The notes below the pieces were generated by a model. That model had not been told where the DNA came from and did not search any database. It worked only from the letters and a program-made list of their open reading frames with translations. Of a stretch of 64,000 bases of DNA, positions 3,151-64,000 are shown in pieces (the stretch's first letter is position 1; each line of letters starts with the position of its first letter). Source of the stretch: Octopus vulgaris (Eukaryota); contig OX597834.1 in NCBI GenBank assembly GCA_951406725.2, forward strand, positions 18,786,001 to 18,850,000, read 5' to 3'. Both the position numbers and the translations under genes were made by a program.

Positions 3151-4384
3151 CTTTACCAGTCTTAGGAATGTTGATACTGATATTAATCTCTTCAAAGGAG
3201 ACTAGCTTAGCCAGTCCAGAAGTGTGGGAGTGCCCTGCTGGAGATACCTTTGGCTTTGGCTCTTCAGAATTGAATTTCCTATTGGACAGCAACTGGTGCA
3301 CAATATCATTGGCATTTGTGGTACACTGCTTCTGTGTTGAGGTTGATGGATGATTTCTGATTTTCCGGATGATGCTCCATGCCTTCTTGCTGTTTTGCAT
3401 ATTTGTTGTGTCTACCAGATTTTGCCATATCTACTATCAGTGTTTTGATAGAGAGGTCACGAGTCTCTCACCTACATTGATGGTACTTTCAGTTAAGGGG
3501 TCAAATTCATAGAGTTGTTGGTGTTGCTCATAAAGTACGGTACTCCAAATATCAAAGCTCAAAATATATTGAGTACAGCTGTCTCATGGGAGAATCTTGC
3601 AGACTGCTTGGGGCAATTTTTCTCAGGCTCTGGTCCAGTTGTGTCACTTACATAATGGTGAATATAACACTGGAAAAACAAAGAAAAATACTTAAATCTC
3701 AATAGTGCTTCCTTCTGTTTGTATCTTAAGAACATGCTTATTTTGCTTAATGTTTTATCCAGGCCTGACTATAGAAGCCAATAAGGGAAGCTCTACACAC
3801 AACTAGAAATACCACAATGAGAAATATCAATGAAACCATTCTCTGTTTCATTGGATGCATTGAGACCAACGAGAGAGCACCTAACTTTTAGCCATTCCTG
3901 GTTATCAGAGCAGAATTCAAATCTGTTTCATTCTTTCTCTCCTCAGCAAACATGTTGGAGCAAACTGTTGGAGCTCTCTCTTTTTCAATCAGTTCAAATG
4001 GAACAAATGCTGTCATTCTACTTTAGTTCTTTTATCCTCAAAATCTAGTCAAATCTAGTTGAATGAAGCACAAATTGTTGTATCTATTCCATTGACAGAG
4101 ATATGTATGGAGCTCATTTATTCTTATCTCAGCAAATTTCTTTTCACACTATACTTTTTTCGTATAAAAATTTTTTTCTTAAGAATTTTCATTCGAGGAA
4201 TATGAACAACATCCATCATTTGTTTCCCCTCTATCTCCACCTGTGGCAGATTGCACTCTTTATCATCTGTGCTGGCTTAGGCATGCTGGAAATGGGTATT
4301 AATTTAGTTTTCCCTCTTCTAGATTGATTACTTTCACCACAGGTAAGGAGCTCAATCTACCCTACAAAAATCTATTTAGCATAT

Positions 4385-4660
4385 AGGTGCAGGCATGGCT
4401 GTGTGGCAAGAAACTTGCTTCTCAAACACATGGTTTTGGGTTCAGTCTTACTGTGTGGCACCTTGGGCAAGTGTCTTCTACTATAGCCTCAGGCTGACCG
4501 AAGCCTTGTGAGTGGACTTGGTAGATAGAAACTGAAAGAAGCCTGCTCTGTATGTGTGTCTTTGTGTCTGTGGTTGTCTCCCACCACTGCTTGTCAATCA
4601 GTATTGGTGTGTTTATTTACCTGTAACTCTGTGGTTCGTCAAAGAGACTGATAGAATAAA
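4385..4660 (+). mobile_element. tRNA-derived SINE family A (tRNA head, CORE-like ggcaccttgggcaagtg block, internal microsatellite), 3'-truncated
   Basis: A-box-like tggctgtgtgg and B-box-like gggttcagtc. Colinear with the full copy at 51197-51600. Confidence 0.85.
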
Positions 4661-5859
4661 TACCTGGACGCCAGGGATGGGGGTGTGTGTGTGGAAGCAG
4701 TAGAGTCGGTTGCATCACAGCTGTGAAGGCATTCTTCACAGATTTGCCAAAGTCGTAAATCGCCTTCACACAGAGCTTGTCTGGTTGCACCTAGCTCCGT
4801 TACCGACAGGAGCAAAAGCGAGAGAATAGCGGTAAGACCTAGCTGCTGCTGATGACTGCGCATAAGGGACTTCCAGCAGGCCTTCCAGAAGACTAATCCT
4901 TGCGCCTGTGTGGATGAAAATCCCAAAATGGCATCTGGAACCAGGCGTCACTACAGATGGATGAAATGCCTCTGAGCATTTTGCCCTGCATGCTAACAAT
5001 TCTGCCAGCTTGTTGCCTTATTGAGACCTGTAATTACAAACTTTCAGAAGTGAACATATGTTTTAATATAGTATTACATAGGCAAGAAAAGGCTTACACT
5101 ACCGATACTGTGTAGTAAATAAAAGAGAACTATTGTAACCAGTTTATCATCTCTGTACATCTATTTCATACACATGTATTTAAAGTTACTACATGATTAG
5201 CATTACAAAGCATTTGCATATTATACTTCTGTTATCAAATATCATTTAATTAGTCACAGTTATCTAGCTGTCATCATAGTCATTTGCAGCAGTGATAGCA
5301 ATATTTGCACTGTGACTCACGACTTTTATCGCAACCTCGTTAACAAGTCGGAGATGTAAAGTTACAGCACTGCCAGTGAACTAACGAGAACTGTTGTCAC
5401 ACTGAAGTTAATCAGTCAGCTGTCTCTTGTTATGTAACAATGTGGTTAGTCAGAACAGCAATGCTTCTCTGTAATACTTATTGTTTTACCCCAAATCAAA
5501 TATGATTGAATAACATTCTAGCTATGATTAAATGCATTCTTGCTATAATTAAATGAATTCTAGCCATGACGATTCTTCCTTTTTAAGACTGCATAACACT
5601 ATATTATATAATGCATCCTTTTGTTATATAAGACAGTGTAGTGCATTGTGATGAAGATTTGGCTACTATTTCTAGCATGTAGTCTCCCTCATGGTGTCAG
5701 TCAGTCAAAACCATGATGTTAGTCTGTTACTTCCCCAGTGTACTCAGTCATTTAGAAGCTTAGTCAGCATGTAGTTAGTCACTCGGAACTATTGTATAAC
5801 GGTATCATTGTTGGCACCTCTGGTGTCCATGTTTGGTTCATCTGGTGCTTCCTTGATGC

Positions 5860-6125
5860 TTAAACCTGACAATGGCTCAGAAGGCCAAGTCAGGAATAGA
5901 ACAATCTCAGGCATTGATTGCATGGCAGTGTGGGTGGTGGTCTTGGCTGGAGCTGTTGAGCTTTGAGTTGCCTTCTAGTTGTTTTTTCATCAGTCTTTCA
6001 TCTTTCCTCAAAAGTGGAACAGCCAAAATGCATTGCTCTTCATCAGGATGTACAGTTGGTGGCTTCTGTTTTTCGGGTGTTAGGACTAATTCCAGCTTGA
6101 AGGAGGGATGACTTTAGCTGGTCTA
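5860..6125 (-). mobile_element. RTE-clade LINE C-terminal fragment with zinc-finger remnant
   Basis: The minus strand reads DQLKSSLLQAGISPNTRKTEATNCTS**RAMHFGCSTFEER and, after a frameshift, PCNQCLRLFYS*LGLLSHCQ. This matches the RTE C-terminus pattern (D.LK.SL...GI...C..C.R.F.S..GL.SH). Confidence 0.7.
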
Positions 6126-6809
6126 GCCATGTCAGCAGACAAAATTTTACCTACAATCAAATCTTGATTCATCATAGTCTCTAAAAACCCCTTATGAAAA
6201 TCATGTTTTAAGCCAGAAGACTAAAATGTTAATTTAAGTTAGACATGTATTTGTGCAATTAAAAGGTCGTTATTTTTCTCAGCACAAGTTCTTATGTACT
6301 TGCAATTGTCTGTGTTACTGAAAAGGTTCCCCACCCCTGGCTCTGACAGAAAAGTAAATGCAGTGATCCTGACCTTTACAAGGCTTCTGTGAGTATTTTG
6401 GAGAAAGGGTGGAGGGCACCGCAATTCATGGATAGGTGCAGTAGGAAGCAGTGCATATCTTCAGATTAGAGAACTGATTGAATTGCTTGCAAATGAGTAA
6501 ACTCTATAAAAGGCACCTAAGGGACAGGGTGGTGGTGGTGTTAAACAGGATAACAATGCAGTCAGTCAGAACTGTATTGATGTCAGCTTGTAGTCATGCA
6601 GAATTTATGTCATGGTGCAGTCAGTCTGTCAGTCAGAGAATAAAGAAACAGTATGGTTGGTCAGAACTGTTGAGCTACAGTTGCTGAAATATTGGTTTCA
6701 AATTTTGGCACAAGGCCAGCAAGTTATGGGGAAGGGTACTAGTTGATTATATTGACCCCAATACTAAAGTGACACTTATTTCATTGAATCCCTGCAGATA
6801 TTACAAAAC

Positions 6810-59110: not shown

Positions 59111-60307
59111 GATAGAACTGTGCATGGTGCTGTTGAGTTATAATCTTTCGTATTTTCTGTTGAGAAATTTCTTCCTTTCTTGTACATTCATTAATCATTG
59201 CACACAATTTTCTCACTGCATAAAATGTTGAATCCGCATAATAGGCAGTTTCACATCTGAAGTTGCAATGCTAACACCACTCGTGTAACAAATTGATCAT
59301 TCCATCTGAATCAAACCACTCGATGTTGAAATCATAATTTAATTTAATATTTTATATTTACTTTGATTCTCATCCATTTCCTTAATTTTGCTGTTTTCTT
59401 TCCTTTTAAAGAAATGAAAGACTGTCCATACTAGACAGAATATTAGCGTAATGTTCTCGTTACATATTTAGATCTGCTGAAGATCTTTGAAGAATATCAC
59501 AGTTTCCAGTGGTATTTGTTCAGTTCCTCAACAGTATTTGGTCATGAGATTTTTAATGTTATTGCAGCAAACCTCTTTTGAAAGAAGGAACAGTTAAAAT
59601 ATACTTTCCTTTTAACGGTTTGCATATCATTGCTAAGTAAATTGCTTTACCTTACCCTTTAAAATTGTATCCTAGCTTATCTTTGAATGTACCAAATAGT
59701 TTCTCAAACAACGGCAGCATCTCTTGGAAAACATTATTTTTTTTTAATGTTAATTTAGGAGTTTGGAGAGGGTAGTGAGCTATGATATATAGAGATATGA
59801 AAGCAATCAGTTATTGATAAAATATGAGAAATAATATATAGATAAGGAAATATATATGGAAATCAAATCACTATCTAAATACTTAATGGCATTTGGTGCT
59901 ATATCTCAGATTTCTCACATTATTGAGTTTGATTTTCTGCTTATGTTAACAGAACATATTTACTGCTAGTATTAAACACGAATTTGTTACCGTATCTCTC
60001 TTGAAATACATTATTTTCTTTCAGTTTTTCATTATTTTGAAAATAATGAAGAATATGATAAAATAAATTGGACATTATTCACCTGATATAAGGTGGCAGC
60101 TGGCAGAATTGTTAGCACATGGGACAGTATCATTCACTGCATTTTTTGAAGGGGGTCAATAAAATAAGTATCAATTGAGCACTGGGGCCAATGTAATCAA
60201 TTAGTCCCCCAACCTTCAAATTTCAGGCCTTGTGCCTATAGTAGAATGGATTTTTAAGCTGATGTTTGAAACAATTTAACATGAAATTTTGATGGACGGT
60301 TATAATT

Positions 60308-60580
60308 TTCACGCTGAGAGTTGCTGAAGCATGGAACAAACTGCCGGCATCAGTTGTTAGTTGTCGGAGCACTGCATCCTTCAAAACTTCCATGCTTTCT
60401 CAAATTCGCCAACACTACACCTGATTTTCTCTCCTCCATACACACACAAGCATGTATCTGACTCATACATTGTTCGCTTTCCAGACATTTGTACATTACT
60501 GCATATACTTTATACGCACTTTCTGACAAGTTGTGGTGCACCTGAGCACTGTATACAATAATTTCATTATTTATTATTAT
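60308..60580 (+). mobile_element. CR1/L2-type LINE 3' end (ORF C-terminus, 3' UTR, (ATT)n tail)
   Basis: 60308-60424 reads FTLRVAEAWNKLPASVVSCRSTASFKTSMLSQIRQHYT*, matching F..RV...WN.LP..VV...S...FK. Confidence 0.85.
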
Positions 60581-61012
60581 TTTAATTTGGATCTCTTTAA
60601 ATCAGGAAGTTTGTACCATAGAACCAAGGGGATTCTTGAGTGGGTTTGTATCACAAGGGTTTAGTGGTTTTACCACATAACAATCTGATGAAATTTATTA
60701 TAAAATTACCTTTTTGCACTAGTTTCACTAGATGACAGAAATTCTTCTAGACTATACCAACACTATGGATGTGTGAAATATATGGGTTATGCTTTAAATA
60801 GGGAACATGAAAATAATAAACCATTTTCGACTAGATATACTGAGGTACAGTAAAATATCAATCAGTTCTCCACAATATAGCTCTGCCTTTAAATTCAACA
60901 TATGTTAGTTAAGTAGAATTAAACATAATTTGATTAGCTTCTCAGTCATGTTGATAGATATAAATTGTGGGTTTTCTAACAGAGAATAAAGCAGATTTAT
61001 TTCATTAACAAA

Positions 61013-61258
61013 TGAGGTCGTCGCCAGTGCCGCTGGACTGGCTCCTGTGCAGGTGGCACGTAAAAAGCACCATTTGGGCATGGTTGTTGCCAGTACCACC
61101 AAACTGGCCCTCGTGCCGGTGGCACGTAAAAGCACCCACTACACTCTCGGGGTGGTTGGCATTAGGAAGGGCATCCAGCTGTAGAAACTCTGCCAGATCA
61201 GATTGGAGTCTGGTTTGCCAGACCTCAGTCAAATCGTCTAACCCATGCTAGCATGGAC
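61013..61258 (+). mobile_element. RTE 3'-end copy, near-identical to 63430-63671
   Basis: Direct visual alignment. Confidence 0.9.
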
Positions 61259-63089
61259 ATTGAGCTGAAATGACTGTGAGGGTCTAAAAAGTCTTAAGTA
61301 TTAAAAAGACAAGTAAATGCAGTATGAAGGTCAATCCAAATCAACTGTTTATCCTATAGATAAAATGTGTATGGGATTTTCTTAGAGATAAAACAATGAA
61401 TGAGCTTTGTTGCTTTCCATAGATAGGCTTAATTCCTAAAAATGTTTCCTGAAAATTTAGTAGCTATTAGTAACAGATAAATGGACTGAAGTAGTACATT
61501 GCTTAGCCATTATCTTACCTATCAGGTTATTTTGCCACAATGGGAAGTTATAAAGCTGATTAATTATGAGTAAAATTGCCCAGAATGGCATAATAGCTTA
61601 AAATAATGACTTGTTCATGATATGACGAGTGCTAAATGAGATCTGATTATTACAATAAAAAAAAGTGAAGAAAATAAAGTAAGGAAAAAAATAAAACTTT
61701 AAGGGGCTAAACCTGATATAATGACTTTGATCTTCACAGGAAGATTGGAAATATGAAGTTCAGTGTAGTTGTATGTGAAGTTTTCCTCTTCAAATAAATC
61801 AAATATTTCATGCTATTTTTAGTACTTAGTATTCTCATTACACCCACCTGTTTGTACTTTGGTGCTTGTGTGTATGCATGCTCACTTATATTTGTGCAGA
61901 CATGCATCTTTATATGCATACGAGGGGGGGGGTGCACTGGAAAGCTCTTGGCCTTGGGTCAAAGAAAATACAGGAAGATCTGTTAATTATGATTTTATGC
62001 AACATGTTCCCCTTTCAGATTCACACACTTAGTGCAGCTGTCCTTCAGTTCTTCTAAGCCCTGTAAAAGAACTCAGAAGGTTGGTCCTAAAACCTGTTTA
62101 TGGACGAGAAGTTTGTAAGATAGAACCAGGGCCAGTCTCAGACTGGTTAGTAAGAAAAGGGTTAGAGTTAGGGTGCTGAGTTTGAATCCTGTAATAAACA
62201 AAATTTGCATTATACTAACAGAGAAATCGATATCTCTGCTGCTTTGTGTAATTGGGATATCACTTCCTCTGGGATAAAGCATGGGCCATTCTGCCTAATG
62301 TGCAAAATGATATTCAAATACAACCAATGTACACAAGAATCTATGATAAAATAGCATGATCATATGAAGTTCATTGAATAGTCCTCAATATCTGGAAAGA
62401 ACCTCAGGCACCTCACCCTGGTTATAACATGATAAAATCTAAAGAAATGAACAAATAACATGTAATCCTAATTGATGGAATATTTTTTTTTTTTTATTGA
62501 ACTGATATTTTTTTATGAGAGCAAAGCTATTTCTAGAATGTGAGGAAAAGCAATATTCAATAACTAACAGATGCTACCAAAGTAGTATTTAATATATTCT
62601 TTCTTTTGAAGACTACCACAAAATTTATTCTGAATTCTTACAATGTATATAAATCAGACATATTGGAAATGGATTATTGAAGCTGGACATGTTGATATTG
62701 AAAGAAGAAAGAAAAAAATGATGATTCAAGTTTGGTTTCTACATATGCTGTATTACCATTTAAATTGAAATTATTGAAACCTGAGACAGACAAATGTTAT
62801 GCTGTACACTATAATCGTTGAATGTTCTCAAAATAACATATATCACAAGCACTATTTATTTTCCAGCTTAAATATTGGTATAAGGCCAATAATCTTGCAA
62901 GAAAAACAGTCGATTTAATTGACTCTAGCACTTGTATTATTCTATGTTCTATTGACCCAGAGAGAAGATTATGGTGGGATTTGAACTCAGAAAATGGAGT
63001 GAAGTAAACAATTGCAGCGTGGAAGGTGTTTGTAAGCCATTTAAGAAACACACAAAAGCCGTTCGATTCACTTCAACATTTAAGTTTAA

Positions 63090-63140
63090 TTTGTCAAAAT
63101 ATTTTCGTCACTTTAAGACCGCGACCTGTTCACTGACAAA
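63090..63140 (-). ncRNA. Type I hammerhead-like fold, G3:C8 variant (left arm)
   Basis: tttgtca-GTGAACA-g-gtcgc ggtcttaaa gtgac-GAA-AATATT-T-tgacaaa. Confidence 0.55.
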
Positions 63141-63162
63141 AATCCGTGATGCAGCATGGATT

Positions 63163-63212
63163 TTTGTCAGTGAACAGGTCGCGGATTTTAGCGACGAAAA
63201 TATTTTGACAAA
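63163..63212 (+). ncRNA. Type I hammerhead-like fold, G3:C8 variant (right arm)
   Basis: tttgtca-GTGAACA-g-gtcgc ggatttta gcgac-GAA-AATATT-T-tgacaaa. Helix I has 7 bp, helix II has 5 bp, helix III is palindromic, and the triplet is UUU. Confidence 0.6.
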
Positions 63213-63402
63213 TTAAACTTAAATGTTGAAGTGAATCCAACGGCTTTTGTGTGTTTCTTAAATGGCTTACAAACACCTTCCACGCTGCAATTGTTTTCGT
63301 TCCAGCTCACGATCTCAGGTCAAATCACTTGCTATGCGAGTACATCTCCGAAGTGAAGTAAATAAATACTATAAGATATTTTGTATGGCACTTTACTAAT
63401 TA

Positions 63403-63705
63403 TGCTGGTGGCATGTGAAACATTCGAGCAAGGTCGTCGCCAGTGCCGCTGGACTGGCTCCTGTGCAGGTGGCACGTAAAAAGCACCATTTGGGCATGGC
63501 CGTTGCCAGTACCATCAAACTGGCCCTCATGCCGGTGGCACGTAAAAACACCCACTACACTCTTGGAGTGGTTGGCGTTAGGAAGGGCATCCAGCTGTAG
63601 AAACTCTGCCAGATCAGATTGGAGTCTGGTTCGCCAGACCTCAGTCAAATCGTCCAACCCATGCTAGCATGGAAAGCGGGCGTTAAATGATGATGATGAT
63701 GATGT
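63403..63705 (+). mobile_element. RTE 3'-end copy with (GAT)n tail
   Basis: Family motifs plus the terminal gttaaatgatgatgatg. Confidence 0.9.
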
Positions 63706-64000
63706 TATTACTGTATCTTTAGTACTGATTTCAAATTTTGGCACAAGGCCAGCAAGTTCAGAAAGGGGGTTAAGCCAATTACATTGACCCCAATATTCTA
63801 CTGGTACTTATTTTATCGACCCCGAAAGGATAAAGAGACGGTTAAAAACAGACAAAATGCCACAAAGCATTTTGCCTGGCACAGTAACAACTCTGCCAGT
63901 CACTGGCATTATTGCTTCTTTAATGTTAACACTAATACTGATGAGGATGATGGCAGATAATTTTCTGTAAAGTGTTTTCTGTTATTTTCAGAGCAAGCTC

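Follow-up and report, generated by a model that had tools for sequence, protein, structure and literature searches.

Positions 63009-63351 of a 64,000-nucleotide stretch of the Octopus vulgaris genome (assembly GCA_951406725.2, contig OX597834.1, positions 18,786,001 to 18,850,000 of the forward strand; hereafter the window, to which positions without a locus label refer) raise the question of whether a short foldback insertion can carry a genuine hammerhead ribozyme whose core pair between positions 3 and 8 has been swapped in nature, and what kind of element placed it there. Our analysis suggests that the insertion consists of two head-to-head copies of the pseudo-long terminal repeat (pLTR) of an autonomous, Nematis-type Penelope-like element (PLE), likely formed when target-primed reverse transcription began at two internal sites, and that the natural G3:C8 pair likely supports a slow, dimer- or protein-assisted self-cleavage after 63205; we assign this reading a probability of about 0.6. 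The anatomy of the insertion, its family, its link to an open reading frame (ORF) and the covariation of the 3:8 pair across PLE families were observed directly.

On the plus strand, a minimal type I hammerhead fold occupies 63163-63212, with the sequence, helices and location that the original prediction, made from the letters alone, had given. Helix I pairs 63163-63169 with 63206-63212 (7 bp), the core spans 63170-63176 with G3 at 63170 and C8 at 63175, helix II pairs 63178-63182 with 63191-63195 and contains G10.1-C11.1 (63178/63195), GAAA lies at 63196-63199 with G12 at 63196, and the palindromic helix III at 63199-63204 is followed by U17 at 63205, after which the cut is predicted. The layout, in which helices I and II surround the core and the molecule ends in helix I, was recovered with pair probabilities of 0.68-1.0; the topology had been called exact, but one extra G (63177) stands between A9 and G10.1. 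The literal core C3 U4 G5 A6 N7 G8 A9 is departed from at positions 3 and 8 only and in a complementary manner, as had been claimed: U4, G5, A6 and A9 are retained, and the 3:8 pair is Watson-Crick as G:C. G12, A13 and A14, the A15.1-U16.1 pair and H17 are all present (63196-63205), as are the features of PLE minimal hammerheads, namely the extra nucleotide between 9 and 10.1, G10.1-C11.1, the palindromic helix III and the pLTR location. When the plus-strand 50-mer 63163-63212 was folded, helices I and II formed with z = -3.4, and 1 of 200 shuffles was equally good. A hammerhead fold on the minus strand (63090-63140; G3 63133, C8 63128, predicted cut between 63097 and 63096) has the identical core, a different loop II of 9 nt and a G-U pair that keeps helix II, again in agreement with the original description; its fold is weaker (z = -2.1, 7 of 200 shuffles equally good).

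The two hammerheads lie in two inverted arms (63006-63151 and 63152-63296, 94-98% complementary) flanked by an exact 11-bp target-site duplication on the plus strand, left at 62998-63008 and right at 63352-63362, so that the foldback insertion at 63009-63351 stands as proposed. The arm at 63009-63151 (minus strand) is a tail-less inverted pLTR, and its outer end is the upstream one of two fixed 3' ends of the family. The tailed pLTR arm at 63148-63351 (plus strand) equals the 5' end of the PLE mRNA: a leader, the hammerhead and the first 30 codons of an ORF for a reverse transcriptase (RT) with a GIY-YIG domain (63262-63351, plus strand), which have 38% identity to the N-terminus of a sister family. 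The span between the two fixed 3' ends (63292-63351, plus strand) forms the PLE tail of about 55 nt. A search of the window itself for a PLE ORF found none.

Exact matches to a 20-mer spanning the core were sought in the 2.8-Gb genome, with the reversed 20-mer as a control. The core 20-mer matched 6,323 times and the control 0 times; 203 sites had a base other than G at position 3, and 379 sites had G3 with a base other than C at position 8, placing G3:C8 at 6,323 of the 6,905 counted sites (92%). The genomic copies proposed for collection thus show a G3/C8 core conserved family-wide. Of the 85 arms at loci that had not been picked by best match, 84 had G3 and 79 had C8. Subfamily-level changes concentrate in loop II. 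No C3:G8 subfamily within the family was detected among the first 100 of the 203 non-G3 sites, and contigs under four other organism labels contained no variant of at least 5% at 63170 or 63175.

Three of the first 30 loci had upstream sequence in common, and walking upstream led through a microsatellite-rich spacer of about 1 kb to an ORF whose end encodes a CX3CxxC linker together with a GIY-YIG domain, the latter matching PF01541 above the cut-off. Twenty loci were fetched around long frames, of which 10 belong to the G3:C8 family, and all 10 of these have the identical hammerhead on the sense strand, some 1 kb beyond the stop codon. Locus L100 has 1,025 open codons. In the tandem copy L102 the pLTR runs directly into the ORF, whose start codon corresponds to 63262 of the window. 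RT motifs are visible in the protein sequence P0001 and its distant homologues carry PF00078; the Pfam RT model gave no match on P0001, and a PDB search gave one weak RT match. The element has the features of endonuclease-bearing (EN+) PLEs: a single ORF with a PLE-type RT and, C-terminally, a GIY-YIG domain, direct or inverted pLTRs, a one-ended tail, 5' truncation and AT-rich targets. In this autonomous element the hammerhead unit constitutes the pLTR and also the 5' end of the mRNA. The suggested link to PLEs therefore holds, with the RT and GIY-YIG frame joined to the pLTR, and the linked frames that the original prediction proposed to look for were found in all 10 long-frame copies; its description of the family as non-autonomous and PLE- or retrozyme-like does not hold, since the unit is contiguous with the ORF of the autonomous long-frame element and includes its start codon.

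By visual comparison, the short linker (CX2-5CxxC with short spacing to the GIY motif) and the C-terminus of the parent element resemble the Nematis rows in Fig. S2 of PMC8557442; a Neptune-type label was dropped, as the linker rows match the Nematis and not the Neptune rows. In long copies a branch-point-like motif, a pyrimidine tract and an AG adjoin the pLTR upstream (L062:9548-9571 and 53 other copies), which resembles a 3' splice site and may be an initiator instead.

A strict descriptor that ignored positions 3, 8 and 9 found 10 matches in 65 metagenome PLE loci, 9 with C:G, 1 with U:A and none mismatched. It also recovered, in the same genome and at the same place of the element, the hammerhead of the sister family, whose protein has 54% identity over 814 aa to the parent element and whose core is C3:G8 with A9C, helix II being compensated. 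After inspection of the sequences, a relaxed descriptor was drawn up; applied to 17 regions, with one matching region chosen by eye, it gave 9 matches (4 C:G, 4 U:A and 1 G:C; 0-3% false positives in shuffles). These 9 matches and the sister family make 10 of 10 families with a Watson-Crick 3:8 pair, for which the chance is 0.0008 under free pairing, or 0.0016 when two close relatives are merged, kinship being ignored in both figures. In a quick version of the tree of PLE families, C:G and U:A were interleaved. G12-A13-A14 and A6 were retained in all matches. A permutation value of p = 0.0003 was set aside, as it relied on 11 states entered by hand, one of them for L155, a locus missed by the descriptor. 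Because related elements keep 3:8 as C:G or U:A, the fold is likely to be real, and we regard the hammerhead fold and the homology of this insertion to PLE hammerheads as close to certain. The natural covariant core that had been proposed is likewise borne out, with G3:C8 throughout the family and C3:G8 or U3:A8 in its relatives.

Several observations concern these relatives in their own right. Further core variants occur in related PLE hammerheads (L150:4973, U15.1-A16.1; L152:2497, U3:A8 with A9C; L157:291, U3:A8 with G5U). The C3:G8 sister family is young and has open frames of 1,312 codons, and its hammerhead has a non-palindromic helix III (L108:2442-6380 and 6892, L109-L116). A second high-copy family, with 2,460 first-look candidates, carries a U3:A8 minimal hammerhead with a palindromic helix III in tandem or inverted copies (L110:8780-9000, L227-L246); its parent ORF was not found. 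A fourth related pLTR family (L107, L273, L068, L046) is represented by nothing but short foldbacks around its ORF start, too truncated for a hammerhead to show.

The ends of the copies suggest how the insertion arose. Of 217 arms, 205 reach the 3' part, the tandem array and arms at locus edges being excluded; of these, 81 ended at 63291-63298 and 109 at 63345-63351, so that 190 of the 205 ended at these two sites. One tailed and one tail-less arm were combined in 51 of 60 inverted pairs, as in the window copy. The two fixed ends that bound the tail are probably start sites of reverse transcription, and together with the tail asymmetry they agree with the two RT start sites of an anole PLE (PMC11167929). 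A target duplication of at least 7 bp was found in 13 of 30 loci, three of these being doubtful TA-rich strings, and many other copies lie within (TA)n. Short copies often start at the same position, beside the splice-site-like motif of the long copies, and carry there an additional G that those copies do not have (15 of 132 contexts), suggesting a capped RNA 5' end. The two arms of the window copy likely came from two templates rather than from self-copying, because they differ by a subfamily-level loop II variant in the minus arm that is common to other copies. In the mechanism that we propose, the RT-endonuclease of the element would nick AT-rich DNA, the complementary DNA would begin about 30 and about 85 nt inside the ORF of the element and would be copied back to the RNA 5' end, yielding short pLTR-only copies. 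Cleavage would be confined to a minority of transcripts, splitting tandem read-through units or stripping a 59-nt leader, and the templates that became inserted would mostly have been uncut.

The system closest to the ribozyme itself is that of the PLE minimal type I hammerheads (Cervera and de la Pena 2014, PMC4209133), which likewise lie in pLTRs, share the extra base between 9 and 10.1, G10.1-C11.1 and the palindromic helix III that had been called typical of them, and also occur as opposite-strand pairs 100-700 bp apart. In contrast to the C3:G8 or U3:A8 hammerheads of that study, including the natural covariant U3-A8 of Schistosoma Cercyon, the hammerhead described here has G3:C8 and a helix I of 7 bp instead of the usual 4-5, and it has become fixed in a family that is young and counts thousands of almost identical copies. 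EN+ PLEs of the Nematis clade (Craig et al. 2021, PMC8557442) share with the parent element the C-terminal GIY-YIG domain with CCHH, the short CX3CxxC linker, tandem and inverted pLTRs, a tail and (TA)n targets, whereas the tail here is about 55 nt rather than 30-40 nt and a microsatellite-rich spacer of about 1 kb precedes the pLTR. Anolis Poseidon PAc (Frangieh et al. 2024, PMC11167929) resembles it in a pLTR that overlaps the ORF start, in AT-rich targets, in a tail set by two internal RT start sites and in the use of uncut RNA as the main template. It belongs to another clade and has the canonical C3:G8, so that its engineered C3G/G8C is the natural state here, and its ORF starts inside stem II, whereas the ATG here lies 56 nt past the cut site.

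Natural U3:A8 is on record (PMC3088659, PMC4209133), and PMC3884650 includes an engineered G3-C8 variant. Our literature search found no natural G3:C8; Lunse 2017, Seehafer 2011, Hammann 2012 and supplement 1 of PMC4209133 lay outside it and may hold one, and the available portions of PMC6155905 and PMC7151607 do not name one. Rfam, searched over 60000-64000 with E up to 10, gave no hammerhead family match, and it likewise missed the C3:G8 and U3:A8 relatives at 5 of 5 loci tested, so that its miss is uninformative about the swap. The expectation that searches based on CUGANGA would overlook this hammerhead is thus correct for a text search but not for Rfam, whose miss is not due to the swap.

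Whether the hammerhead cleaves is less certain than its fold. From the covariation and the conserved core we favor self-cleavage at some rate with moderate confidence, while several observations weigh against it, or at least against a strict need for cutting. Although the original prediction was right that the double swap is reported to rescue cleavage, the C3G/G8C double mutant is rescued only partly, both in general (PMC8495972) and in a PLE hammerhead (PMC11167929). G3 moreover has a probability of 0.67 of pairing with U17 in the predicted fold, an off-pathway lengthening of helix I. A transcript of the whole insertion forms one long hairpin (-234 kcal/mol), so that the window copy could adopt the hammerhead only when transcription begins at its inner start; lying on opposite strands, the two hammerheads of this copy cannot dimerize in cis. 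The relaxed descriptor left 8 of its 17 regions without a match, and G:C occurs in a single lineage of the quick tree. Within the family, conservation is 98.4% in the core and 97.7% in the flank, weak evidence for selection because the copies are young. Arm 5' ends no more than 3 nt from the cut site numbered 5 of 205, without excess, in a sample that favors core-containing copies. Mismatched G3-G8 copies are estimated at about 155 (41 of the first 100 of 379, by eye), whereas the mirror change C3-C8 is put at about 20 copies (10 among the first 100 of 203). Since the 12 G8 arms examined are less diverged (0.049) than other variant classes (0.08-0.09), mismatched G3-G8 sources probably also transposed at a low level.

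Some of these points give weight to an alternative in which the insertion is the same PLE pLTR but its hammerhead is catalytically negligible, being kept as a protein-binding or translation-leader structure or merely inherited, with the 3:8 pair kept for shape. The G3-G8 excess and the absence of a pile-up of 5' ends at the cut site would suit it, as would the tolerance of A9C, G5U and U15.1-A16.1 in relatives, the poor cleavage of PLE minimal hammerheads in vitro (PMC4209133) and the anole PLE, where hammerhead mutants leave in vitro insertion unaffected and RNA ends were not observed at the cut site (PMC11167929). It accounts less well for a 3:8 pair that takes three states across 10 families and is Watson-Crick in all 10, and for the retention of G12-A13-A14 and A6 in all matches. 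The 3:8 pair, moreover, belongs to the active conformation of the hammerhead. We consider negligible catalysis a serious but less probable explanation than slow cleavage. At the opposite end, the hammerhead may be the first natural catalytically active G3:C8 example, completing C:G, U:A and G:C in one PLE clade, and may serve, 56 nt upstream of the start codon, as a switch that is slow by design and assisted by protein, and by which RNA would either be cut (and translated or degraded) or stay whole and be reverse-transcribed. This proposal is speculative and, in our view, rather unlikely; it draws on RNA viruses, in which hammerhead cleavage in the 5' untranslated region promotes translation (PMC13725137).

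Two other explanations concern the identity of the insertion. A non-autonomous retrozyme or SINE-like family spreading through circular or tandem RNA could be imagined from the short pLTR-only copies, which far outnumber ORF-bearing ones, and from locus L069, the only one with a tandem array (15 hammerhead-bearing units of about 170 nt; 3898-6594 spans the array and the pLTR that they follow). Animal non-LTR retrozymes (bioRxiv 10.64898/2026.07.22.740005) are indeed short type I hammerhead repeats derived from pLTRs, but they are tandem and non-coding monomers without an ORF of their own, whereas the G3:C8 family is dispersed and has an autonomous parent. Its copies are single or inverted and end at fixed sites inside the start of an ORF with which the unit is contiguous, and this explanation is largely refuted and very improbable. 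The L069 array is itself retrozyme-like, and dimers in cis would be possible there in principle. Chance resemblance within a hairpin like that of a miniature inverted-repeat transposable element or a microRNA was suggested by the sub-threshold microRNA hairpins that were the only Rfam matches here. It is refuted by the homologous position and 3:8 covariation across PLE families, by the linkage to the RT ORF with a hammerhead on 10 of 10 long-ORF copies, and by inverted arms of variable length with duplications of 7-13 bp, and we give it even less credence than a retrozyme origin. Two copies of another repeat (61015-61257 and 63431-63673; 243 nt each, 96% identical) flank the insertion; they resemble an RTE-type SINE or LINE 3' end and may represent one.

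We conclude that the fold is real: it is a PLE hammerhead whose 3:8 pair was swapped in nature, and it sits in the pLTR of an autonomous element of the Nematis type. Nature has here fixed, in a young element present in thousands of copies, the swap by which biochemists demonstrated the 3:8 pair. This lends support to selection acting on the active fold in PLE hammerheads, which appear dispensable for insertion in vitro. Surveys of hammerheads should admit any Watson-Crick pair at 3:8, and one genome supplies a ready set for tests: a protein that is nearly intact together with its own RNA, the sister family with C3:G8 and a family with U3:A8.
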